Program-made: the position numbers and the translations under genes
Part shown: piece after piece, positions 3,724-39,575 of the stretch
Layout of the letters: each line of letters opens with the position of its first letter
Position numbering within the stretch: position 1 is the stretch's first letter
Notes under the pieces: generated by a model
What the model saw: only the letters and a program-made list of their open reading frames with translations
Databases searched by the model: none
What the model was told of the DNA's origin: nothing
Assembly: GCA_027624865.1 (NCBI GenBank)
Contig: JAQBTT010000003.1
Span: 1-42,853 of the forward strand
DNA length: 42,853 bases
Source: a bacterium
GTDB lineage: Bacteria > Patescibacteriota > Minisyncoccia > Minisyncoccales > UBA10102
Direction: 5' to 3'

Positions 3724-3792
3724 CTGCCTAAGCTAAGCTTAGTTATCCCCACCTAAGCTAAGCTTAGTTATCCACAGCTAAGCTAAGCTTAG
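3724..3792 (+). repeat. Three tandem family-A palindromes (25-nt period) with DnaA-box-like spacers
   Basis: ctaagctaagcttag at 3728, 3753 and 3778; spacers ttatccccac and ttatccacag. Confidence 0.9.
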
Positions 3793-3872
3793 TTTTTGAC
3801 AGAGGCGGTTGGATTTGAGCATAGTGAGTTATAGAAAGGTCGTTAGTGTATACAAGGGTAACATTTAAAGTT

Positions 3873-4143: not shown

Positions 4144-4195
4144 CTCTGCCTAAGCTTAGCTTAGTTATTCACAGCTAAGCTAAGCTTAGGCAGAG
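4144..4195. repeat. REPIN-like inverted doublet of family A, upstream of RAYT-1
   Basis: Perfect 21-bp inverted repeat (4144-4164 / 4175-4195) around the spacer ttattcacag. Confidence 0.9.
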
Positions 4196-4227
4196 CAAAC
4201 AAGAGACATTTGCAGTATACTGTTTTT

Positions 4228-4947
4228 ATGGCAAGAAAAACAAAGTTTAAAGTAGGAAATATATACCACGTGTTCAATAGAGGCGTCGAAAAACGCGATA
4301 TCTTTTTGTCGGACGGAGACCGATGGAGGTTTCTTCAAGGGCTTTATCTTTTTAATAGCGAAGATGGATCGGCAAATCTTTTGTATCGCTTGGAGCAAGA
4401 GAGAGGGAGGATGCATTTTGGGGTTTTGCGCGAATACTTAGCAAAAGCAGGAATAAGGCGTAACCCATTGGTGCGTATTATGGCAGATTGTCTCAAGCCC
4501 AATCATTTCCATTTACTTTTGCAGGAGCTTCAAGAAGGCAGTATTTCCAAATTTATGCAAAAGCTCGGGACAGGGTATACAAAGTATTTTAATAAAAAGT
4601 ACGAACGTGTGGGCAGTCTATTTCAAGGCACGTTTAAAGCAGTGGAAGTGAACAAAGACACTCAGCTTCAGTATCTTCTTGCGTACATAAACGTGATTAA
4701 TCCGGGCCAGGAGCTGGAACCCGATTTAAAATCGGCAGCGCAGGATCCAGAAGAAATTTTGCGGTTTGTAGAGAACTATCCTTGGAGTACCCACCCAGAA
4801 TATCTTGGGAAGCGCACCTCTATTATTGCCGACAAGGGTGTTGCGGGCAAAATGTTTCCTACACCGGCAAAGTACAAGGCATTTGTGGCGGATATTATAC
4901 GAGGTAAACAGCCTTTCCTATTACGTAAAGAAACGTTGTTGGACTGA
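4228..4947 (+). mobile_element. RAYT-like HUH/Y1 transposase (RAYT-1), intact, 239 aa
   Basis: YHVFNRGVEKRDIF, CLKPNHFHLL (HUH), YFNKKYERVGSLFQG, YINVINP and YPWST motifs; family-A palindromes on both sides; TATACT 4216-4221 supports ATG 4228. Confidence 0.9.
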
Positions 4948-4950
4948 CCC

Positions 4951-4977
4951 GTGGAAAACTAAGCTTAGCTTAGGCAG
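4951..4977 (-). repeat. Family-A palindrome downstream of RAYT-1
   Basis: Minus strand reads ctgcctaagctaagcttag-ttttccac. Confidence 0.85.
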
Positions 4978-4980
4978 AAT

Positions 4981-5730
4981 ATGAGAGAGATATTGGAAAA
5001 AGTGAAAAATGGGGTGCTGGATGTTGTGTTTCCGACAATGTGTATGGGTTGCGGGAAGGAAGGGCATTACATATGTATGCGCTGTGAAGGATTTGTGGGT
5101 GAAGTTGCTTTGATTTGTCCGGTTTGTGGGCAGTCCAGTTTAACTGGGCAACAGCACCAAGCTTGCAGGTCGCTCTATGGCTTAGATGGTTTGGCAAGTT
5201 GTTTTGAGTATGAAGGAGTTGTGAAAAATTTATTGCATCACATAAAATATAATGGCATGACTCACGCAGTAAAAGAAACAACAGCTCGCGTACTTGGGAT
5301 TATGCTGGAAGACACAGCGCGATTTTATCCATTTCTCTCATTCTTGTCTTCTCAAAATATACATATAACATATGTTCCTATGTATAAAAAAAAGGAAAGA
5401 GATAGAGGATTTAATCAAGCAGAAATGTTTGCAAAAGAGATTGCAAAGAGCATGGGAAAGGAAGTTTTTACTATGCTTGAAAAGATAAAAGATACAAAGC
5501 CACAGGTTGCATTGAAAAAAGAAGAACGACTGCAAAATGTGAAAGATGCGTTTGCAGTTAGCAGGGTTAGCCCGCATAGCGCTGTAGGGGCTGACTCTAC
5601 TCTGCCAGAAAAGGTGATTTTGGTTGATGATGTGTGGACCACGGGAGCTACTATGAAAGAGTGCTGTAGAGTTTTGAAAAAAGCCGGGGCAAAAGAGGTG
5701 TGGGGCTTTACGTTAGCGAGAACTTCTTAA
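4981..5730 (+). CDS. comF: ComF family competence protein (double zinc ribbon + PRTase-like domain)
   Basis: CxxC motifs, RGFNQAE, VILVDDVWTTGAT. Confidence 0.92.
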   Translation: MREILEKVKNGVLDVVFPTMCMGCGKEGHYICMRCEGFVGEVALICPVCGQSSLTGQQHQACRSLYGLDGLASCFEYEGVVKNLLHHIKYNGMTHAVKETTARVLGIMLEDTARFYPFLSFLSSQNIHITYVPMYKKKERDRGFNQAEMFAKEIAKSMGKEVFTMLEKIKDTKPQVALKKEERLQNVKDAFAVSRVSPHSAVGADSTLPEKVILVDDVWTTGATMKECCRVLKKAGAKEVWGFTLARTS

Positions 5731-5733
5731 AAG

Positions 5734-6186
5734 AATTAACCTAATTGACCTAATTTCTAATTAACCTAAACAATCTCCAATGCCCAATGACAAATACGAC
5801 CTTGAAGAACGAACTGCTATGTTTGGGGAAGAAGTAATAAAGTTTTGCAGAGACTTGCCTAAGAATGAAATCACTAGACCCATTATTAACCAGCTAGTAA
5901 AATGTGGTACGAGTGTAGGCGCTAATTATTGTGAAGCTGACGACGCAGAAAGCAAGGATGATTTTAGACACAAAATAGGGATTTGCAAAAAAGAATCTAG
6001 AGAATCAAAGCATTTTTTGCGAATGGCAGCGGTAGCTGTTTTTGAAATGGCAGACAAAGCAAGAAAACTTTGGATTGAAGCAAAAGAGTTAAACCTGATT
6101 TTTAACTCGATATATAAGAAGGTTAAAAAAAATTAGAAATTGGTGCTTGTTTAGAAATTAGGTTAATTAGAATAATTAGGTTAATT
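5734..6186. mobile_element. Putative element: four-helix-bundle gene between inverted arms of 7-9-mer repeats
   Basis: Left arm aattaacct-aattgacct-aatttct-aattaacct-aaacaa (from 5734); right arm ttgttt-agaaatt-aggttaatt-agaataatt-aggttaatt (to 6186). Confidence 0.65.
5780..6136 (+). CDS. Four helix bundle protein (23S rRNA IVP / TIGR02436-like)
   Basis: DLEERT...QLVKCGTSVGANYCEA...SKDDFRHKIGICKKESRESKHFL...EAKELNLIF pattern; 118 aa. Confidence 0.9.
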   Translation: MPNDKYDLEERTAMFGEEVIKFCRDLPKNEITRPIINQLVKCGTSVGANYCEADDAESKDDFRHKIGICKKESRESKHFLRMAAVAVFEMADKARKLWIEAKELNLIFNSIYKKVKKN

Positions 6187-6190
6187 AAAA

Positions 6191-7081
6191 ATGTTGACGG
6201 AAGAGAAAAATGTTGTCAAAAAGGAAAACTCTCGCTACCCCTCATTGCTTGGGGATATTTCTGATGCGCCAAAGCAGTTATATTATAAGGGTACCTGGAA
6301 TCTAGAGCTTTTTGATACATGTTTGGCAGTGGTAGGAACTCGAAGGATGACAAGCTATGGAAAGCGCATGACAGAAGATATTGTAAGCAAAGTAGCAAGA
6401 GCTGGCATAACTATTGTTTCTGGATTTATGTATGGTATTGATGCTGTGGCGCATAAGGCTGCAGTGAGCGCGGGCGGAAAAACCATTGCAGTAATGCCAT
6501 GCGGTATTGATATTGTTCACCCAGAATATCAAGCAGATTTGTATCAAGAGATTTTAGATACCGGTGGGTTAGTGCTTTCAGAATATGAAGGAACACACCC
6601 TCCAGCAAACTGGACATTTCCAAGAAGAAATCGCATTGTTGCAGGGTTGTCACAAGCTACGCTAGTGGTTGAAGCAGGAGAAGGCAGTGGCGCTTTAATT
6701 ACTGCAAATCTTGCTAAAAAATATGGAAGAAAAGTGTTTGCCGTGCCAAATCCTTTAACAAGCGCGGTTTCGCAGGGAGTGACGCAATTGCTTCGTGAAG
6801 GAGCAACTGTGGTAGGTGGCGCAGAAGATATTTTGCAATATTATGGGTTGCGAGATCGTGTGCCTAAGCTAAGCTTAGGAGCTCCTAAGCTTAGCTTAGG
6901 CACGGGAGTACAAGATGAACTGGAGCAAAACATTGTAGAGCAGTTAGAAAAACAATCGCTTCATGTAGATGAACTTGCTCGAAGGCTTGAGGTTTTACCA
7001 GCCAAATTGGGTGCTGCAATTTCAATGCTACAACTGGAGGGGTATATTAAAGAGGAGCAAGGGAGATACTATGTTAATTGA
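6191..7081 (+). CDS. dprA: DNA processing protein DprA (no N-terminal SAM domain) with an in-frame palindrome insert
   Basis: AVVGTR, IVSGFMYGIDAVAH, FPRRNRIVAGLS, VVEAGEGSGALIT; C-terminal winged helix. Confidence 0.95.
   Translation: MLTEEKNVVKKENSRYPSLLGDISDAPKQLYYKGTWNLELFDTCLAVVGTRRMTSYGKRMTEDIVSKVARAGITIVSGFMYGIDAVAHKAAVSAGGKTIAVMPCGIDIVHPEYQADLYQEILDTGGLVLSEYEGTHPPANWTFPRRNRIVAGLSQATLVVEAGEGSGALITANLAKKYGRKVFAVPNPLTSAVSQGVTQLLREGATVVGGAEDILQYYGLRDRVPKLSLGAPKLSLGTGVQDELEQNIVEQLEKQSLHVDELARRLEVLPAKLGAAISMLQLEGYIKEEQGRYYVN
6860..6903. repeat. 44-bp perfect palindrome (family-A doublet), in frame in dprA
   Basis: gtgcctaagctaagcttaggagctcctaagcttagcttaggcac; encodes VPKLSLGAPKLSLGT. Confidence 0.95.
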
Positions 7082-7218
7082 CCTAATTAACCTAATTTCT
7101 AATTGACCTAAACAAATTCTAATGCCCAATAATTCAATGATCAAAAGAAGCTTTAGGCATTGGTTTTTAGACATTGGAGATTGTTTAGAATAATTAGAGC
7201 AATTAGAATAATTAGAAT
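7076..7218. mobile_element. Gene-less copy of the four-helix-bundle element arms
   Basis: Same aattgacct/aattaacct/aatttct-aaacaa left arm and ttgtttagaataatt right arm with no ORF between; contains the dprA TGA stop. Confidence 0.7.
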
Positions 7219-7229
7219 AGTTTTATCCT

Positions 7230-8765
7230 ATGTTATTTAAAGTACAATCTATTGCAAATTCTGGCATGGAAGCGCTTGGAGTAGATATTGAGGTGAGTGT
7301 TTCAAGTAGAGGTTTGCCGGGTTTTGATATTGTGGGGCTTCCCGATAAGGCAGTGCAAGAAAGCAAGGAGCGGGTGCGCGCTGCAATTGGAAATTCAAAG
7401 ATTGAATTTCCACAAAGAAAAATTACGGTAAATTTAGCTCCAGCCGACATTCCAAAGGAGGGCTCTTTGTATGATTTGCCTATTGCGGTTGGAATTATGG
7501 CTTCTGTCTTGCAGTATGAGATTCCCAAAGACAGTTTATTTTTAGGCGAACTTTCTTTAGATGGCACGTTGCGTCATACAAAAGGGGCTGTGCTCATGGC
7601 GCTCTTTGCAAAAGAACAGGGATTTTGCAATGTTTTTGTGCCAGCAGAGTCTGCCAATGAGGCCGCAATTGTGCAAGGTGTAAATGTATATGGAATAGAA
7701 AATTTAGAGCAGATAGCGAGTTTTCTTTTGGGGAATCAAAAAATAAAAAAAGTGGCGTATTCTGCTCCGTTACTGACTGGGGCGGCTGATGCCGAGTTTG
7801 ATATGGCAGAAGTTCTTGGGCAAGAAACTGCTAAGCGAGCTATAGAGATAGCCGCGGCGGGAGGGCATAATATTTTAATGATAGGGAGTCCAGGTTCTGG
7901 GAAAACCATGCTGGCGCGAGCGTTGGCAGGCATCCTACCAAAATTAAATGAAGAAGAATCGCTTGAGGTGACAAAACTTTATTCTATTGCAGGAAATATT
8001 CCTCCGCGAGGGTCACTCATTACAGCTCGTCCTTTTCGCGCGCCGCATCACAGTGTTTCTCTTATCGGGTTGATTGGGGGAGGCCAAAAACCTCAGCCAG
8101 GCGAGGTGAGCTTGGCGCACAGAGGAGTATTGTTTTTAGATGAATTTAATGAATTTCCCCGTAGTGTGCTGGAAAGTCTTCGCCAGCCTGTGGAAGATGG
8201 CATGCTTACTATTGCGCGAAGCAGACAGCGAGTAACCTACCCTTGCCGATTTATGTTGGTGGCATCTTGTAATCCTTGTCCATGCGGATACCTTACTCAT
8301 CCAAAGAAAGCTTGTGTGTGCACGCCAAGAGAAGTAAAAAAATACAAAAAGCGAGCCTCGGGGCCGCTTTTAGACCGGATTGATCTGCATATTGAAGTAC
8401 CAGAAGTTGACATACAAGAGTTTCAAGATAATCAAAAGGCTTCACTTTCCAAAGAAAGTTCGTTTGCCATGCGAGAGCGAATTGAAAAGGTACGAAAGAT
8501 GCAAGAAGTAAGGTTTGCAGGGGAACCTATACATGCTAATGCCGAAATGAAGAATAGCCATATTAAAAAATACTCTTTGCTTTCAAAAGAAGCAGAGCAG
8601 ATATTGAGTCGAGCGGCTCTTTTGTATCAACTCTCTGCAAGGTCTTTTATGAAAATGATAAAAATAGCACGTACCATTGCAGATCTTGCAGGGGCAGAGC
8701 ACATTGAAAAAAGTCATATGGCAGAGGCTTTGCAGTACCGCCCCAAAGCATATGAATTTGATTAA
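7230..8765 (+). CDS. comM: ComM/YifB Mg-chelatase-like AAA+ helicase
   Basis: VGLPDKAVQES, NLAPADIPKEGS, GSPGSGKT, PFRAPHH, LFLDEFNEF, NPCPCG. Confidence 0.95.
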   Translation: MLFKVQSIANSGMEALGVDIEVSVSSRGLPGFDIVGLPDKAVQESKERVRAAIGNSKIEFPQRKITVNLAPADIPKEGSLYDLPIAVGIMASVLQYEIPKDSLFLGELSLDGTLRHTKGAVLMALFAKEQGFCNVFVPAESANEAAIVQGVNVYGIENLEQIASFLLGNQKIKKVAYSAPLLTGAADAEFDMAEVLGQETAKRAIEIAAAGGHNILMIGSPGSGKTMLARALAGILPKLNEEESLEVTKLYSIAGNIPPRGSLITARPFRAPHHSVSLIGLIGGGQKPQPGEVSLAHRGVLFLDEFNEFPRSVLESLRQPVEDGMLTIARSRQRVTYPCRFMLVASCNPCPCGYLTHPKKACVCTPREVKKYKKRASGPLLDRIDLHIEVPEVDIQEFQDNQKASLSKESSFAMRERIEKVRKMQEVRFAGEPIHANAEMKNSHIKKYSLLSKEAEQILSRAALLYQLSARSFMKMIKIARTIADLAGAEHIEKSHMAEALQYRPKAYEFD

Positions 8766-11546: not shown

Positions 11547-13874
11547 ATGATTCAGTCAGTTTCATTGCTAGAGAAGATTTCAAAAGGGGCTCTGTACGCC
11601 GCAGTATTCTTGCTCCCTCTATGGTTTTTGCCTGTAACTCAAAATGTTCTTTTATATCAAAAGCAAACCTTACTAGTTTTGTTGGTGTTCCTTGGTTTGG
11701 TCGCTTGGCTAGCTAAAATAGTGAGCCAGGGTGAAATTCGTCTGCGCCTTTCCCCTCTATATATCCCAGTTGCTTTGCTTTTGCTTTCAGTTGGAGTATC
11801 TACCATGTTTTCTCGCTGGGTTGCAGGTTCCTTTTGGGGATGGCCACTTAGTTTGACTGATAATTTTCTAACGCTCGTAATCTTTGCCTTATTCTCATTC
11901 TTGGTTCTTCAAGTAGTTGAGAATGCAAAGCATCTTTTTAACTTACTCTTAACCTTATTGGTTTCTTCTGGCATTGCAGTTTTATACACCTTGCTCCAGG
12001 CCTACCAGCTCTATCTTCTTCCTTTTGACTTTGCCAAGGTTGCAACCTTTAACACACTTTCAAATATGAATGGTGTTGCTATTTTTTCAGCAATACTCTT
12101 GCCCTTGGCTTTAGCCTTAGCTTTTGTATCAAAGATGCTTTTGCGATGGGCGCTATGGATTGTGGCAGCTGTATTGCTTGCCTCGCTTGTGCTTTTAAAC
12201 TTTCAAACAGCCTGGATTATTCTTACAGCTGGCCTCTTGGTACTTTTGGCCTTTGGTATGTGGAATATGAAAAAGAAGGGTGAGTTTGGATGGACTTCTT
12301 TTCCTATGGCTTTAATCATTGTGGCTGTGTTTTTTATGGTATTTCAGGTTGCCCTGCCTGGGGCTCCAAGAACTTTGCCAACTGAGGTTTCGCTTAGCCA
12401 AGGCGCAACTTGGAATGTTGCAAAAGAAACCTTAAAGAACCATGCACTCTTTGGAGCGGGACCCGGTACCTTTGTTTTACAATATGCCAAGTTCAGGCCA
12501 GCGGAACTTAATCAAACTGTGTTTTTTGGTACAAGATTTTCTTCAGGAGCCTCTGAAATTTTAAACTGGTTAGTAACGAAGGGTGCTGTTGGTTTCGTAG
12601 TACTCTTGGGCCTATTTTTGACGATAAAAGTTCTTGGAATCAAATCATTACTTCGGTTTGAAGAAGAAAACTTTACATGGATGTTGGGCCTTGGAGCTTT
12701 TGCTTCCCTCACCGCCCTTATTGTTTCTACGTTCCTCTACCCTGCTTCCTTTATGGTGTGGTTTCTATTCTGGACCTTACTTGGAGCTCTTGCCTTTACG
12801 GGAGCAAAAAAGGTTTCACATTTTACCGTTACTACATATCCATTCCTTGCCCTGGGCTCTTCTTTTATCTTTTTGATTGTTCTTATCTTTGGCCTTGGTC
12901 TCATGTTTGTTGGTGGACAAAAGTATGTAGCAGAAGCTCAGTATCTTAAGGGGGCACGAGCATCGGCAGTAGGAAATTTGGACGTGGCAATTGCAAAGAT
13001 TCTTTCTGCAGCAAATTTAAATCCCGCAGTGGACCTCTACTGGAGAGATCTTTCTCAGCTTTACTTAACAAAGGTAAATCAGATTTCAGCAAATCAGGAA
13101 CTTTCAAAAGAGGAGCGCCAAGCGCAAACACAGACTGCGGTTTCAAATAGCATCGCATCTGCTCGCGCCGCAACAAAGGTGGCACCAGCAAACGTTGCAA
13201 ACTGGAACGTTCAAGGATTTGTGTACAGAAGCCTTATTGGTATTCAAGGAGCAGAAGCCTTGGCGCAAGAAGCATATCTTGAGGCAGCAAAATTGGAACC
13301 TACCTCTCCGTTCCCGTGGACAGAATTGGCTCGTTCCAAGATTGTGCAGGCTCAAGCTCTTGCTACCAAAAACGCTGAGGAGACAAGAGCACAAGTGCTT
13401 CTGGAGGCTCTTGAAAATCTTAATAAAGCCTTGGAGCTAAAGGAGGACTATGCTCCTGCTCACTTTTTGACTGCTGTGGTATATGATCAACAGGGAAAAT
13501 CAGATGAAGCTGTGGCAAAGCTTGAGGAAACAAAACTTATTTCTTCGCCTGATGATATTGGTTTGGCGTTTCAGCTGGGAGTTCTCTATTGGCAGCGAAA
13601 GGAGCTTGCAAAAGCTGAAGTTGAACTTACGCGAGCAGTTGGGATTAACCCTGATTACTCCAATGCAAGATATATCTTAGGATTGGTGCATGATGCAAGG
13701 GGGGACAAGGTCGCAGCAAAGATAGAGTTTGCCGAGGTAGAAAGATTGAATCCAGATAATCAGGAGATAAAACAAATTCTAACAAACTTGGAAAATGGCC
13801 GTCCGGCTCTGGAGGGTATCCAGGTTTCAGCCCCTCCTATCAAAGAGGCCCCACCTGAAATTCCAGGAGCGTAA
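11547..13874 (+). CDS. Paralogous O-antigen-ligase-like membrane protein with TPRs
   Basis: Same architecture as 9232-11499; GAGPGTF motif; TPRs. Confidence 0.75.
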   Translation: MIQSVSLLEKISKGALYAAVFLLPLWFLPVTQNVLLYQKQTLLVLLVFLGLVAWLAKIVSQGEIRLRLSPLYIPVALLLLSVGVSTMFSRWVAGSFWGWPLSLTDNFLTLVIFALFSFLVLQVVENAKHLFNLLLTLLVSSGIAVLYTLLQAYQLYLLPFDFAKVATFNTLSNMNGVAIFSAILLPLALALAFVSKMLLRWALWIVAAVLLASLVLLNFQTAWIILTAGLLVLLAFGMWNMKKKGEFGWTSFPMALIIVAVFFMVFQVALPGAPRTLPTEVSLSQGATWNVAKETLKNHALFGAGPGTFVLQYAKFRPAELNQTVFFGTRFSSGASEILNWLVTKGAVGFVVLLGLFLTIKVLGIKSLLRFEEENFTWMLGLGAFASLTALIVSTFLYPASFMVWFLFWTLLGALAFTGAKKVSHFTVTTYPFLALGSSFIFLIVLIFGLGLMFVGGQKYVAEAQYLKGARASAVGNLDVAIAKILSAANLNPAVDLYWRDLSQLYLTKVNQISANQELSKEERQAQTQTAVSNSIASARAATKVAPANVANWNVQGFVYRSLIGIQGAEALAQEAYLEAAKLEPTSPFPWTELARSKIVQAQALATKNAEETRAQVLLEALENLNKALELKEDYAPAHFLTAVVYDQQGKSDEAVAKLEETKLISSPDDIGLAFQLGVLYWQRKELAKAEVELTRAVGINPDYSNARYILGLVHDARGDKVAAKIEFAEVERLNPDNQEIKQILTNLENGRPALEGIQVSAPPIKEAPPEIPGA

Positions 13875-14155: not shown

Positions 14156-17100
14156 ATGGCAACTCCCCAACCTCTTTTTAAAAATTTTACAAAGACTCAA
14201 GTTCACTTCCCCTTGCCTTACCTGCTTTCGGTACCGCAAAATAGTTGGAACAAGTTTTGGGCTACAGATTTTAAGGAACTATTGCAAGAAGTGTCTCCCA
14301 TACGGGACCACACAAAAAAGGAGTTTGAACTTTGGTTTTTGGATTTTAAAATAGGGAAGGCAAATCATGCCTCTGATCTTGAAGCAAAAGAAAACGATGA
14401 TTCCTATCAAGCGCCACTGCGTGTGAAGGTTCGTTTGGTAAACTTAAAAACAAAAGAGCAAAAAGAGCAGGAGATATTCCTCGCTGATTTTCCTTTAATG
14501 ACCGCGAGAGGTACGTTTATCATCAATGGAGTGGAACGTGTTGCAATTAGCCAGCTCATCCGTTCCCCTGGAGTATTCTTTACCGGTCAAAACGTTACTG
14601 CTACAAAAAAGATTTTTGGAGCAAAAATTATCCCTAATCGAGGGGCGTGGTTGGAATTTGAGACTGAGGCTTCAGGATTTATTGGTGTTCGTATTGATAG
14701 GAAAAGGAAAGCGCCCGTTACAACGCTTTTGCGTGCCTTTGGCATGGAGACTGAGGAGGCAATACGGAGTGCATTTGGCGACGTAGATACAGGAGAGGTA
14801 AGTTACATTACAGAAACTTTAAAAAAGGATATTACCAAAGGACAAGGAGATGGGTTAATGGAGATTTACCGAAGGCTTCGCCCTGGGGACTACGTTACCC
14901 CAGAGACAGCAAAGGAACTTATTTGGAACATGTTCTTTAATTTTGAGCGGTATGATTTTTCTCGAGTTGGAAGATGGAAAACACTGCAACGCTTGCCAGC
15001 TTTAAAGCCAAAAGACAAGAAATCAAAATCTGCTGAGGCAAATGAGGAGATTAGCATTGAAGACCGTGTGTTGAAACTGGAAGATGTAGTAGAAGTGCTT
15101 CGTGAAATTATTCGTTTAAACAATACTCCGGGAGCTGCGCCCGATCAAATTGATCACTTAGGGAATAGGAGAGTGAGAACCTTTGCTGAGTTTTTGCAAA
15201 ATAGGTTGCGCGTTGGATTTATGAGGATGGAGCGGATTATAAAAGACAGGATGTCTACCTTGGATTCTGCTACCCTCACCCCAGCGCAGTTGGTAAATCC
15301 AAGGCCGGTTATGGCAATGATTAAGGAGTTTTTTACGTCTTCTCAAATTACTCAATTCATGGATAATGAGAACCCTCTAGCTGAACTTGAGCACAAAAGA
15401 AGAGTGTCAGCTACTGGACCTGGTGGATTAACCAGAGAACGAGCTGGATTTGAAGTGCGAGATGTGCAACCTTCACACTATGGAAGAATTTGCCCTATCC
15501 AAACCCCAGAAGGTCCAAATATTGGGTTGGTGGGACACATGGCAAGTTATGCCCGCATTAACTCTCATGGGTTCTTGGAAACTCCATACTTTAAGGTAGA
15601 GAAAGGAAAGGTATTAAGTGAGCTAAAATATTTAAATGCCTTTGAGGAAGAGCAGGAGATTATATCTCACGCAGGTATTGCTTTGGATAAAAATAATAAG
15701 ATTATTCCAGAAAAAGTGCAGGCGAGAGTACGGGGAGAAGCAGGAACTGCCCCAAGAGACGAGGTGACGTACTTTGATGTTTCAGCAGAGCAGTCAATTT
15801 CTATTGCAACAGCCCTTATCCCATTTTTAAGAAACGATGATGCAAACCGTGCACTGATGGGCTCTAACATGCAGAGGCAAGCAGTTCCTTTAGTAAAACC
15901 TCAAAGCCCATTAGTAGGGACGGGGCTTGAAGAAAAAGTAGCGCAAGATTCAGGGCTTGCAGTCATGGCAAAGGAAGATGGCACCATTACACAGGTGGAC
16001 GCGCGTCACATAACGCTCAAGCCTCAAAAGGGGCATATCATAGTAGAAACACTTAAGAACTTTGTTCGAACGAACCAGTACACTTCTTTTCACCAACGTC
16101 CCATCGTAAATGTTGGAGATAAGGTAAAGAAAGGGCAAATCATTGCAGATGGAGGTGCTATTGATCAAGGACGCTTGGCCCTAGGAACGAATCTATTGGT
16201 TGCATTTCTCCCATGGAGAGGAGGCAACTATGAAGATGCTATTGTTCTTTCAGAGCGCTTGGTAAAAGATGATAGGTACACCTCAATTCACATTGAGGAT
16301 TTTGTGGCAGATATTCGTGAGACGAAACTTGGACCTGAGGTTACTACTTCAGATATTCCTAATGTTGGAGAGGAGAAACTAAGAGATTTGGATGAAGAAG
16401 GAGTAATTCGTGTTGGAGCTGAAGTGGAACCTAATGATATTTTAGTAGGAAAGATTTCTCCTAAAGGAGAGGCAGATCTTACTGCAGAGGAACGCCTGCT
16501 TCGTGCTATTTTTGGTGAAAAGGCACGAGACATTAAAGATAGCTCTCTTTTGATGCCTCACGGAAAACGTGGAAGAGTGGTATCTGTGAAAGTATTTGAG
16601 CGTTCCTTGGGGCACAAACTTGAGCCTGGAATTATAAAACGTATTCACGTTGAGGTTGCACAACTTCGAAAAATACAACCTGGAGATAAGTTAGCTGGGA
16701 GACACGGGAACAAAGGAGTGATTTCTTTTGTCTTGCCAGAAGAGGATATGCCATTTATGGAGGATGGAACCCCAGTGGATATTGTTTTAAATCCTTTGGG
16801 GGTTGCATCTCGAATGAATATTGGGCAGATTTTGGAAACTCACTTAGGGTGGGCAGCAAAGAAGGGCGGGTACTATGCGATAACCCCTGGACTTGCAGGA
16901 GCTACTGAAGAAGATATTAAAGAGGCATTGCGCGAGCAAGGGCTTCCAGAAGACGGAAAGATAACGCTATTTGATGGACATGATGGGAAGCCGTTCCCTC
17001 AAAAAATTACCGTGGGGTACGTGTATATGCTCAAGTTAATTCATATGATTGAAGACAAGATTCATATGCGTTCTATTGGTCCTTACTCTTTAATCACTCA

Positions 17101-36605: not shown

Positions 36606-39575
36606 ATGGCTCAAGACTTCATCACAATTAGGGGAGCTCGCGTACATAATCTTAAGAATATTGATGTTGATATTCCAAAGGGGAAACTTGTTGTTATAAC
36701 AGGGCTTTCTGGATCTGGGAAAAGTTCTCTTGCCTTTGACACACTGTATGCGGAAGGACAACGTAGGTACGTTGAGAGTCTGAGCGCCTATGCTAGGCAA
36801 TTTCTTGGCATCATGCAAAAGCCTGATGTAGATAGCATTGAGGGCATTTCACCTGCTATTGCAATTGACCAAAGAAAGGGAGCACATAACCCAAGATCTA
36901 CTGTTGGAACCAGTACGGAGATTTATGATTACCTCCGTCTTTTATTTGCCAGAGTCGGTATTCCTCATTGCCCAAAGTGCAGAAAGGTGGTTTCCAAGCA
37001 ATCTGTTTCACAGATTGCAAGTCAGGTGCAAAAACTTCCAATGGGAAAAGAGATTTCTATTCTAGGTCCTGTTATTAAAGAAAAGAAAGGAGAACATCGC
37101 GGAGTACTAGAAGAGGTATTGCGTTCTGGGTTTGTGCGAGTTCGCGTGGATGGAATTGTAGAGCGCATTGAGGAAGCAATGGGACGCGAAATAGATGGCA
37201 AAAAGAAGCATTCCATTGAGGTTGTCGTAGATAGACTAACGATTGAAAAAGATTTGGATCGTCCTCGGCTTGTTGATTCTTTGGAAACCGCACTGAAACT
37301 TGGAAAGGGCATGGTGATAATAAATCACAAATCACAAATCACAAATCACAAACAAATCACAAATCCAAAAACACAAAACACAAATAATAAATCAGCATCA
37401 ATCAGTAGAAATCAGCATCAATCAGCGGCTGAAGACCTTGTCTTCAGCGAGCGGCTTGCTTGTGAGGAGTGCGGTATCTCATTGCCAGAGATTGAGCCTC
37501 GGGTATTTTCTTTTAACTCTCCTTTTGGAGCGTGTTTGTCTTGCCAGGGATTGGGAGAAAAATTGGAGGTTGATCCAAAATTGGTTATCCCCAACCCAAG
37601 ACTTTCCATTGCAGAGGGAGCTATTTTTCCTTGGGCTCACGCTTCACATAAAATTGGGAGGCAGGGATTCTTTTGGTGGAAGCTAGAAGACTTGGCAAAG
37701 GAGCGTAAGTTTTCGCTCAATAGTCCCGTGAAAGATCTCCCCTCTAGCGTGACAAAGTTAGTATTGCACGGAGATGGAGACTTTGAAGGGGTCATTCCTT
37801 GGCTCCAAAGACGCTACCATGAAACTGATTCTGAATATGCTCGGGAAGAAATTGAGCAGTACATGGTAGAGAAGATTTGCGAAGCATGCCAGGGGCAAAG
37901 ATTAAAACCAGAGGTTTTGGCAGTAACGGTTGGAGGAAAATCTATCCACGAAGTAGTAAGTCTTCAGTTAAATCATACAAAAGAGTTTTTTTCCAAGCTT
38001 GTATTAAAGGAGCATGAAAACAAAATTGCGCATCCCATTATTAAAGAAGTACTAAACAGACTACAGTTTTTAATTGATGTTGGGCTTGAGTATTTAACCT
38101 TGGCAAGAAAGGCAGGGACTTTGTCTGGAGGAGAGGAGCAGAGAATACGTCTTGCAACCCAGATTGGTTCCAAGCTTACTGGAGTACTATATATTTTAGA
38201 TGAGCCATCCATTGGACTCCATGCAAGAGATCAGCACGGGTTAATTGCAACATTAAAGCAACTTCGCTCGCTGGGAAATACCATTGTGGTTGTGGAACAT
38301 GATGCACAAACCATGGCAGCCGCTGATTGGATAATAGATATTGGCCCTGGAGCTGGAAAGCACGGAGGCAAGGTTACGTTTCGTGGTACCCCAAAGCAAC
38401 TATTAAAATCACATACCTTAACGGGAGACTATTTTTCAGGAAGAAAAACAGTAACGGTACAGCGCCGAACAACCGTTGCTTCCCCAGGGGAAGCAATCCC
38501 AGGAGGGGAAGCAACCCCAGGAAAAGGGCCATTGCTTCCCCTGGGGAAGCAATGGCCCTACTCAAAAGTAGGGTCAGACCCTACTTTGCAGATGGTTATT
38601 AAAGGGGCATCCCAAAACAATTTAAAAAATATTGATGTAAAAATTCCTTTAGGGAAGCTCGTATGTGTTACTGGGGTTTCAGGTTCAGGGAAGAGCTCTT
38701 TGGTAAATGATATCTTGGCAAAGGCATTGCTTAAAAAACTGTATCGGGCAAAGGAAGAACCAGGGGAACACAAAGCAATTGAGGGAGTTGAGAATGTAAA
38801 CAAAGTGGTGTTGGTAGATCAGTCGCCCATAGGAAGAACTCCAAGGAGCAACCCCGCAACCTATACAGGGGCCTTCTCTGTTGTGCGAGATTTATTTACA
38901 GGAACGAAAGAGGCAAGGATACGAGGGTATGCCTCAGGAAGATTTTCTTTTAACGTGAAAGGAGGAAGGTGTGAGTCATGTGAAGGACAGGGCTTAAAAA
39001 AGATTGAGATGTACTTTTTGCCAGATGTGTATGTTGAGTGTGAGGAGTGCCAAGGGAGAAGGTATATGAAGGAAGTGCTTGAGGTGCAGTATAAAGGAAA
39101 GAATATTGCAGAGGTACTGGACATGACTGTAGAGGAATCTTTGGACTTTTTCAAAAATGTTCCATCGCTTGCGCTAAGGCTAAAGACCTTAAACGATGTA
39201 GGACTTTCCTACGTTGAGCTAGGTCAGCCAGCGCCATCGCTGTCTGGTGGGGAAGCACAGCGAGTAAAACTGGCAACAGAACTTGCAAAGAAAGCAACAG
39301 GGAAGACTCTCTACATATTGGACGAGCCAACTACGGGGCTACATTTTGATGATGTACGAAAGCTTTTGCAGGTTTTAGGAGAACTTGTAGATAAAGGAAA
39401 CTCTGTGCTTGTTATAGAGCATAACCTTGACCTCATACGCGCTGCTGACTGGATTTTAGATTTGGGTCCTGAAGGAGGAGAGAAAGGAGGGCAACTCATT
39501 GCAGAGGGGACACCAAAAGATGTTGCGAAAGTAAAGAAGAGCTACACTGGGCAGTTCTTGCAAAAGACTAATTAG
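36606..39575 (+). CDS. uvrA: Excinuclease UvrA with two in-frame repeat-derived inserts
   Basis: [43 protein letters not shown], zinc fingers; ATG at 36606. Confidence 0.98.
37322..37427 (+). repeat. In-frame composite insert: AAATCAC heptamers plus aatcag units
   Basis: (aaatcac)x4-aaacaaatcac... then aatcagcatc-aatcagtaga-aatcagcatc-aatcagcg; encodes [35 protein letters not shown]. Confidence 0.9.
38476..38587. repeat. In-frame cluster of family-C and family-D palindromes in uvrA
   Basis: ttgcttccccaggggaagcaa 38476-38496; 35-nt palindrome 38525-38559; aaagtagggt-cag-accctacttt 38565-38587. Confidence 0.92.

Follow-up and report, generated by a model that had tools for sequence, protein, structure and literature searches.

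Gene-bearing and gene-less copies of a likely transposase-less foldback cassette at the comF-dprA-comM locus of a Minisyncoccales genome

The window analysed here is a stretch of 42,853 nucleotides (nt), positions 1 to 42,853 of contig JAQBTT010000003.1, from a bacterium of the order Minisyncoccales (GenBank assembly GCA_027624865.1). In the comF-dprA-comM region of this window, a gene for a 118-amino acid (aa) four-helix-bundle protein stands between inverted arrays of short repeat units, here called arms, and a gene-less copy of the same arms lies between dprA and comM. We consider it likely that the locus holds two members of a family of foldback cassettes of the intervening-sequence (IVS) type, inserted as DNA by a route that employs no transposase. 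A third member, which is gene-less, is by its position and its absence from close relatives an IVS in the 23S rRNA gene of the same genome. As judged from filled and empty sites, units of this kind enter transcribed and densely packed locations as DNA, both at gene junctions and at rRNA expansion sites, and are gained and lost between close relatives. Some genomes contain multiple copies.

The genome under study, labelled G000, comprises 38 contigs with 558,841 bases, a G+C content of 42% and a completeness of 98.9%; it has the appearance of a candidate phyla radiation (CPR)/Patescibacteria genome, and the window is its contig C11. Other G numbers denote relatives; G001, G002, G003 and G004 belong to the same genus as G000, and G007 belongs to another genus.

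Copies of one arm family and their empty sites

An initial annotation, made from the sequence letters alone, described the 118-aa gene as enclosed by inverted arms of 7- to 9-nt units, with its ATG and TAG inside the arms. Repeat pairs, direct reading and predicted folds bear out this description, and both codons lie in the paired region. The left arm (5734-5779) is built of 9-nt and 7-nt units followed by CTAAACAA. Positions 5727-5760 and 6151-6184 are complementary at 82% over 34 nt, and positions 5766-5788 and 6132-6154 at 78%, so that the start codon (5780-5782) and the stop codon (6134-6136) of the gene fall within the stem. When the gene-bearing copy was folded as RNA, the arms paired around the open reading frame (ORF) with an energy of -103.7 kcal/mol, compared with -85.1 ± 5.5 kcal/mol for shuffled sequences (z -3.4, 1/100). 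The inverted-repeat bracketing score of the gene was 43; the median for 562 ORF-based genes of G000 was 16 and the 99th percentile 37.

The same arms recur without the gene at about 7076-7224 and supply the stop codon of dprA, as the initial annotation had proposed. The left arms of the two copies (5734-5788 and 7076-7130) are 89% identical over 55 nt, a stretch that takes in ATGCCCAAT and the opening 9 nt of the ORF; the ATGCCCAAT remnant lies at 7122-7130 in the loop of the gene-less copy. Identity between the inner right arms, at 6133-6156 and at 7167-7190, is 88%. The exact reverse complement of the 17 nt at 5766-5782, which had been reported from the second set of arms, was recovered once in the window, at 7172. 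The dprA stop codon TGA (7079-7081) is inside AATTGACCT (7076-7084), the first arm unit of the gene-less copy. As RNA, this copy folds into a single long imperfect hairpin of -37.3 kcal/mol, compared with -21.2 ± 3.2 kcal/mol for shuffled sequences (z -5.0, none of 200 as good). A contig built by an independent assembler from a public run covers 6909-7256, that is, the entire gene-less copy and both of its junctions, so the copy is not an assembly artefact. Joined or skipped forms of the stretch were not seen in the public contigs that contain it, all of which are DNA from one study; no RNA run was listed for the organism.

A genome-wide search for the arm units returned one further cluster, on contig C5, within the 23S rRNA gene. 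This is the only copy in G000 inside an rRNA gene, the two window copies lying between protein genes, and it brings the gene-less copies of this arm family in G000 to two. The insert occupies 197 nt where the Rfam bacterial large-subunit (LSU) rRNA model has 8 (model positions about 224-232). Its left units are those of the window copies and its right units are of their type; it also has a loop related to that of the gene-less window copy and an extra outer stem of about 20 bp, and it folds as one rod of -70.1 kcal/mol (shuffled, -33.0 ± 4.4 kcal/mol; z -8.4). The distance between conserved 23S anchors is 221 nt in G000 and 33 nt in the same-genus genomes G002 and G004; the insert is thus 188 nt long and absent from both relatives. 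A 4-nt repeat, GTAT, is found at its borders. Of 21 loci examined in the anchor comparison 20 gave a usable pair, the remaining one pairing a spurious upstream anchor. Anchor spacing was 31-33 nt in 13 of 19 relatives, and the other six bear small unrelated hairpins at the site, which indicates that the site tolerates inserts. The initial annotation had offered, as an alternative to mobility, an RNA stem that brackets the gene and is processed like an IVS, and the IVS-like nature of the stem is supported by the third copy of the same arms being an IVS in 23S rRNA. The C5 23S rRNA gene has a second insert of about 205 nt (locus L004, 5210-5414) at model position about 283, with GACGCGGA-type and TCTGCGT-type inverted units and no gene.

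The order Y1-comF-dprA-comM, in which Y1 denotes an IS200-like gene, is conserved in the family, and dprA was found in 30 of the 41 genomes searched. In 11 of the 18 junctions of relatives that we compared, dprA and comM overlap or abut. These include all three same-genus junctions (G001, G003 and G004), where an 11-nt stretch of the ATGTTATTTAA type is the overlap shared by the two genes; the spacers of the remaining seven relatives run from 7 to about 550 nt. G000 has 143 nt of gene-less element at this junction, flanked by a duplication of the former overlap (11-14 nt, with 12 of 14 positions identical). As a consequence, comM retains its start codon, and dprA has two new last codons and a stop codon that come from the element. 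From this comparison, the gene-less copy at the dprA-comM junction is an insertion.

Filled, empty and decayed states were also found when comF-dprA-comM junctions were compared between G000, its same-genus relatives and G007. The 118-aa gene is not a fixed, armless resident of the comF-dprA junction: no four-helix-bundle gene was found there in G001, G003 or G004, the same-genus genomes that hold the junction. The spacer itself is variable, with a short hairpin in G004, short AT-rich repeat-unit hairpins in G001 and G015, a conserved stretch of about 200 nt in G003, G017, G005 and G009, and almost nothing in others. Only G007 among the relatives has a four-helix-bundle gene at this junction, located at a contig end, with residues 27-66 gone and a similar right arm. 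Nucleotide identity between G000 and G007 is 87.9% for the 3' half of the cassette, 72.4% for dprA and 67.5% for comM, values that suggest later transfer to the same site or constraint and are too weak to separate the two. The conserved stretch of about 200 nt (L007 about 1285-1490, L008, L015 and L020) has a 3' end resembling a tRNA T arm and a repeated word of the CTGGCTTGTCA type; ARAGORN predicted no tRNA or tmRNA in it at four loci, and no Rfam family matched at two.

To follow the arm family across the order, we used a 13-nt motif, CTAATTRACCTAA. It occurred in 34 of 201 sampled genomes with up to 35 occurrences per genome, compared with 0-1 for a reversed control pattern. It was present 20-35 times in each of G037, G058, G059, G088 and G159 and was not found in the five other sampled genomes from the family of G000. 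Ten stretches each from G159 and G037 were folded by script to delimit elements, which yielded at least nine gene-less elements in G159 and ten in G037. These are hairpins of 91-165 nt in which a short loop separates the left units from the right units, and they are placed in short spacers beside start or stop codons. A search of G159 with one of its elements gave at least 14 additional matches, with identities of 79-95%. This element itself stands between a dnaK-like and a dnaJ-like gene, where it provides the stop codon of the upstream gene, and the site is empty in G222 and G220, which are of the same genus as G159; no target duplication was seen at this junction relative to these two genomes. 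(The names dnaK-like, dnaJ-like, gyrA-like, rpoB-like, pilT-like, pilC-like, atpD and atpC rest on a reading of sequences and translations and not on family searches.) A further G159 copy is in 23S rRNA at model position about 583, a different site from that in G000, and has a similar outer stem.

Close homologues of the 118-aa protein were identified in G058 and G037, at 75% and 71% identity, and twice in G059 (77% and 74%), where both copies contain stop codons. They stand in other contexts: the G058 gene follows a gyrA-like gene and the G037 gene precedes an rpoB-like gene. The G058 homologue has arms of four AATTTCT units per side. DprA is 39% identical between G000 and G037. On this evidence the gene travels with the arms. 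Gene-bearing copies also decay, as seen in the stop codons of two neighbouring G059 copies (L114 and L117, contig C5) and in the loss of about 40 codons from the G007 copy (L011). The initial annotation had read the window pair as autonomous and non-autonomous forms of one mobile element. A mobile unit with gene-bearing and gene-less forms is supported by insertions relative to same-genus genomes, by multiple copies and by the variety of contexts, while an "autonomous" role of the gene-bearing copy, in which the protein would drive movement, goes beyond these findings.

The 118-aa protein and the arms of PF05635 genes

The 118-aa protein matches PF05635 in a Pfam profile search (44 bits, cut-off 33.8) and the TIGR02436 model "four helix bundle protein" (68.5 bits, cut-off 24). 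Chain A of PDB entry 2RLD, named "uncharacterized protein" by its depositors, matches residues 10-118 (E 7.7e-10), and we take its fold to be a four-helix bundle. For a related protein, the S23p of Xanthomonas, a structure cited in PMC4990558 is reported as a homopentameric ring. The unit encodes no transposase, in agreement with the initial annotation, and the gene-bearing form encodes the PF05635 protein only.

Genes around the two copies are ordered as follows: an NYN-domain gene, a DUF3276 gene, Y1 (4210-4947; similar to IS200 transposases and repetitive extragenic palindrome (REP)-associated tyrosine transposases (RAYT)), the comF-like gene, the 118-aa gene, dprA and the comM-like gene. 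Coordinates of the features around the two copies are collected in Table 1. Public contigs from the single run that covers the stretch contained two single-base variants within the four-helix-bundle gene, at 5825 (G>T) and 6037 (T>C), each in one low-depth contig, and these may reflect strain variation or error.

Table 1. Features of the comF-dprA-comM region in window coordinates
Feature	Position	Strand	Basis and remarks
comF-like gene	4981..5730	+	Pfam Pribosyltran and DZR_2, ORF list; stop 3 nt 5' of the left arm
Left arm, gene-bearing copy	5734..5779	+	Units AATTAACCT, AATTGACCT, AATTTCT, AATTAACCT, then junction CTAAACAATCTCCA; Tandem Repeats Finder period 9, 4.2 copies
118-aa PF05635/TIGR02436 four-helix-bundle gene, at hairpin apex	5780..6136	+	Profile matches, PDB 2RLD match
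Right arm, gene-bearing copy	6133..6187	+	TTAGAAATTGGTGCTTGTTTAG followed by units of the AGGTTAATT type; overlaps the stop codon, ends 3 nt 5' of the dprA ATG
dprA	6191..7081	+	Pfam DNA_processg_A; between both copies; last codons and stop from the gene-less copy
Left copy of duplicated dprA/comM overlap	7066..7079	+	ATACTATGTTAATT; 12/14 identical to 7225-7238; single copy in relatives
Gene-less copy	about 7076..7224	+	Left arm 7076-7115, loop 7116-7166, inner right arm 7167-7190, right units 7185-7219
Right copy of duplicated overlap	7225..7238	+	ATCCTATGTTATTT; contains the comM start codon
comM-like (Mg-chelatase-type) gene	7230..8765	+	Pfam Mg_chelatase, ChlI and Mg_chelatase_C; downstream neighbour

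G000 has three PF05635 genes in total. The two others are at a pilT-like/pilC-like junction on contig C1, with arms of TAGGTTG-type units, and at the atpD-atpC junction on contig C38, with arms of 10-nt units that end in GATATT or its complement. On C38 (L002), in the manner of dprA in the window, atpD lies between a gene-less copy (12740-12843) and a gene-bearing copy (14212-14720) of this second arm family. Units at the pilT-like/pilC-like junction differ among G000, G005 and G001, and the right arm is complementary to the left each time; the arms therefore change in concert.

PF05635 is present in 17 of 41 relatives, with 0-5 matches in each. Their flanks were examined at 30 loci, one of the 31 originally listed having been dropped for a flank too short to score. 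Inverted arms were detected at z>=4 relative to shuffles in 25 of these loci, and 23 reached a score of at least 30. Left flanks scored a median of 39.5 with their own right flank and 17 with the partners of other loci, the own flank being the best of 30 in 21 cases; high scores with foreign partners arose mainly between loci with a common arm type.

For a wider sample, 80 loci were collected from public records with an alignment of C1-type proteins, and 79 were retained after exclusion of one with a match near a contig end. This survey samples the subfamily of the C1 paralogue and not that of the window gene. The loci come from Patescibacteria, Bacteroidota, Clostridia, Acidobacteriota, Planctomycetota, Desulfobacterota, Gammaproteobacteria, Ignavibacteriota and other phyla. 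Arms at z>=4 were present in 56 of the 79, comprising 20 of 27 labelled by record title as CPR and 36 of the 52 others. The median score was 32 with the own partner and 17 across loci, and the own score exceeded the 95th percentile of cross scores in 57 of 79. Among the 56 armed loci, the best period of the upstream arm was 7 nt in 41, 8 nt in nine and 9 nt in four. The two strands of the arms differ in composition with respect to the direction of the gene (TAG 266 versus CTA 45; AGT 264 versus ACT 29), which gives the arms a polarity. The subfamily of the window gene has, by reading, the opposite polarity, so the polarity holds for the sampled subfamily and not for all.

Homologues of the 118-aa protein thus do not generally lack arms: when the flanks of four-helix-bundle genes are tested as the initial annotation had recommended, inverted arms are present in both surveys. 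The AAACAA junction, which was expected to accompany them, is confined to the arm family of the two window copies and is not a feature of the entire gene family. Chance or low complexity as the origin of the arms was ruled out by shuffles, by the comparison of own with cross partners and by the reversed-pattern control.

Period 7 is the commonest class of tandem repeat in G000 (49 of 146 arrays with at least three copies), and several of these arrays are gene-less inverted pairs. The heptamer AAATCAC is repeated 10.9 times at window positions 37322-37394, and arrays of it also occur on C5, C7 and C9. Two small genes, at C8:5076-5357 and C1:13655-13912, are among the most strongly inverted-repeat-bracketed in G000 and are GIY-YIG-like by reading.

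Mechanism and alternative explanations

A cassette of this kind could be tolerated as follows. Once transcribed, the arms would pair into a double-stranded RNA stem. In Coxiella burnetii, RNase III cleaves IVS RNA in vitro, in the stem at the first repeat (PMC4990558), and by analogy the host RNase III, whose gene (rnc) is present in G000, would probably cut the stem here. Cutting would remove the insert from rRNA, or would split the flanking mRNAs without abolishing operon transcripts, and the insertion would be harmless. Stop codons in the arms would let an insertion end the upstream gene cleanly. Possible tasks of the protein are binding to the arms, upkeep of the element or assistance in its movement.

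Several results weigh against this account of the locus as inserted, IVS-type cassettes. The insertion signatures differ, being 11-14 nt at the dprA-comM junction, 4 nt in 23S rRNA and none visible at the dnaK-like/dnaJ-like junction of G159, which argues against one fixed staggered cut. (A target duplication of fixed length was rejected on these same values of 11-14, 4 and 0 nt.) Mismatches in the arms that are compatible with G·U pairing numbered 55 on the sense strand of the gene versus 67 on the other strand, of 260 (p 0.32), and selection on a sense-strand RNA stem is consequently unsupported by that test. Some cassettes are syntenic across genera, at the pilT-like/pilC-like junction (G000, G001 and G005) and at atpD-atpC (G000 and G010), which implies that many copies have long been inherited vertically. 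By the scoring used, 5 of the 30 loci in relatives and 23 of the 79 across phyla have no significant arms. Finally, no homologue was found in G159 with the 118-aa protein as query, despite about 25 motif matches; the protein is thus not needed for the persistence of gene-less copies and perhaps not for their spread. The lack of G·U bias, taken together with the concerted change of units, suggests that a process at the DNA level keeps the arms complementary. As a conjecture, a foldback may allow one arm to serve as template for the repair or copying of the other.

It may be that the gene-less hairpin is the primary mobile element, resembling a miniature inverted-repeat transposable element (MITE) and moved by a host or foreign enzyme. 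The ORF would then be a secondary passenger of hairpin apices and not the mark of an autonomous form, much as homing-endonuclease genes colonise introns. Gene-less copies do far outnumber gene-bearing ones, as the example of G159 illustrates; G000 itself has many gene-less inverted heptamer pairs and only its three PF05635 genes, and the gene-less hairpins of G037 consist of repeat units almost up to the apex. However, one protein subfamily accompanies one arm type across families (G000, G037, G058 and G059), and the high cross-partner scores are concentrated among loci that share an arm type. In addition, the gene-less window copy retains the first nine ORF nucleotides (7122-7130) and the ORF-distal stem, as would be expected of an internal-deletion derivative. 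We give this explanation a minor chance of being correct.

Mobilisation of the hairpins in trans by Y1 (RAYT-like, IS200-type) tyrosine transposases, which would make them akin to REPs or to REP doublets forming hairpins (REPINs), is possible but unlikely. Hairpins in single-stranded DNA are the substrate of Y1 enzymes (IS200/IS605, RAYT), whose action produces no target duplication, and the lack of a duplication would fit the dnaK-like/dnaJ-like site of G159. The 559-kb genome has five Y1_Tnp matches, one of which (4210-4947) is two genes upstream of the 118-aa gene, in the gene order that is conserved in the family, and matches the NCBIfam model REP_Tyr_transpos weakly (25.9 bits, cut-off 80). 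The palindrome on either side of the Y1 gene is nevertheless a different one, CTAAGCTWAGCTTAG, which is present 66 times in the genome; this is how a RAYT and its REP would be expected to pair. The Y1 gene is also syntenic in relatives without the cassette, and these two facts make a role for Y1 in trans unlikely. The 11-14-nt duplication at the dprA-comM copy and the occurrence of armed cassettes in many phyla (counted irrespective of Y1 genes) also speak against it. Within the window, which contains 14 of the 66 copies, the REP-like palindrome lies at 3725-3800, 4145-4196, 4957-4978 and 6860-6903 and is found on both sides of the Y1 gene. A perfect 44-nt double copy lies in frame within dprA and encodes PKLSLGAPKLSLG. 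At 6820-6960 the public contigs show the sudden rise in word depth that a repeat should give.

We regard as very improbable that the arms are host regulatory RNA that evolved in place, serving operon processing, insulation or translational control of the small gene, rather than insertions. Such a role would agree with the position of cassettes inside operons and their synteny across genera at some junctions, with the sequestering of the start codon in the stem and with the inward-facing stop codons of the arms (mean 2.09 reading frames closed inward versus 1.51 outward). In opposition to this stand the clean filled and empty sites within a genus at three places (dprA-comM, 23S rRNA and the dnaK-like/dnaJ-like junction of G159), the many copies of one arm family, which is present at junctions of unrelated genes and at two different positions in 23S rRNA, and the decay of gene copies by internal deletion (G007) or stop codons (G059).

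That the 118-aa gene encodes the Avd accessory protein of a diversity-generating retroelement (DGR) was rejected and is extremely improbable: PF05635 proteins resemble Avd (PMC10053308) and the C1 paralogue weakly matches the Avd equivalog (29.1 bits, cut-off 80), but no RVT_1 reverse transcriptase was found in the 98.9% complete genome, the Avd model gave no hit to the 118-aa protein at E<=0.001, and no pairing of template and variable repeats was seen around the gene.

Insertion of IVS-type cassettes without a transposase thus remains our preferred reading of the locus. A much broader version can be formulated, which we put forward tentatively and with considerable doubt. PF05635 genes with inverted arrays of short, mostly 7-nt repeats might be pan-bacterial transposase-less mobile cassettes, with the IVSs of 23S rRNA as their rRNA members. 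The Avd-like protein would recognise its own arm units and promote copying or insertion through a DNA-level foldback or template switch, and the family would also be the source of the long-unexplained excess of heptamer arrays and heptamer hairpins in bacterial genomes.

Comparison with known systems

The closest known systems are the ORF-bearing IVSs of 23S rRNA, such as the helix-45 IVS of Coxiella burnetii with its S23p gene and those of Leptospira (Warrier et al. 2016, PMC4990558). As in these, a PF05635-family ORF is located in the loop of an inverted-repeat stem, and one copy of the present arm family is inserted in 23S rRNA. Further points of likeness in the account given in PMC4990558 are tandem heptamers upstream of the start codon, no transposase and a sporadic distribution that suggests horizontal transfer; in Coxiella the tandem heptamers directly precede the S23p start, and there are inverted terminal repeats. 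Two ideas on the origin of IVSs, a "remnant of transposition" and a "mobile element whose ORF aids mobility", are listed there, untested. The present cassettes differ in that the gene-bearing copy and one gene-less copy are between protein genes and that gene-less copies are multi-copy in some genomes. The rRNA sites are also different, at LSU model positions of about 224-232 in G000 and about 583 in G159.

In CPR bacteria, rRNA genes bear short non-intron inserts, some with 23S_rRNA_IVP ORFs (Tsurumaki et al. 2024, PMC11270868), and the 188-nt insert of G000 belongs to that class. The account of CPR rRNA genes in that paper does not describe repeat-unit arms, copies outside rRNA or filled versus empty sites. 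Convergent pairs of tandem heptamers or octamers at variable distance in operon spacers, which the present arrays resemble, are known from Xanthomonas (GGGAATC pairs; Rehm et al. 2015, PMC4692102) and Geobacter metallireducens (paired sites; Aklujkar et al. 2009, PMC2700814), where they have been interpreted as repeats that form quadruplexes or as sites at which regulators bind. S23, 23S, four-helix or intervening-sequence proteins are not mentioned in the main text of either paper, although the supplements may list the genes in between. Within our literature coverage, which excluded subscription journals and supplements, no publication came to light in which PF05635 genes outside rRNA are connected with repeat-unit arms or in which the gene-less hairpins are treated as insertions.

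Like MITEs, the gene-less elements are small and non-coding, have inverted termini, are multi-copy (G159 and G037) and are placed at gene junctions. Unlike MITEs, they show no fixed-length target duplication and no related transposase-bearing parent, short units in tandem make up their arms in place of unique terminal repeats, and the gene-bearing form carries a four-helix-bundle gene. There is also a likeness to known inverted-repeat inserts at gene junctions that are small, non-coding and multi-copy and are co-transcribed and cut by RNase III, as the present stems would probably be. Eukaryotic foldback transposons have long inverted arms built of short tandem repeats that fold back on themselves; the resemblance is in architecture only, as those elements are far larger and have no protein homology to the cassettes.

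ORF-bearing IVSs with inverted repeats and heptamers, CPR rRNA inserts with IVP ORFs and convergent pairs of heptamer or octamer arrays are therefore already in print. What is new is the occurrence of one arm family in three states in one genome, around a gene, gene-less between protein genes and gene-less in 23S rRNA, together with three clean comparisons of filled and empty sites, which differ in their insertion signatures. Where rRNA intervening sequences come from has been debated since 1990. The three states and the empty same-genus sites make the mobile-element idea directly testable, with rRNA as one of several landing places. They also link a very large Avd-related protein family, the tandem heptamer arrays reported without explanation from Xanthomonas, Geobacter and Coxiella, and the insertions tolerated in operons of compact genomes. 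Ribosomal IVSs would then appear to be a special instance within a broader family of insertion elements. If the protein does act on its own repeat arms, this would be a new transposase-free way for DNA to move.

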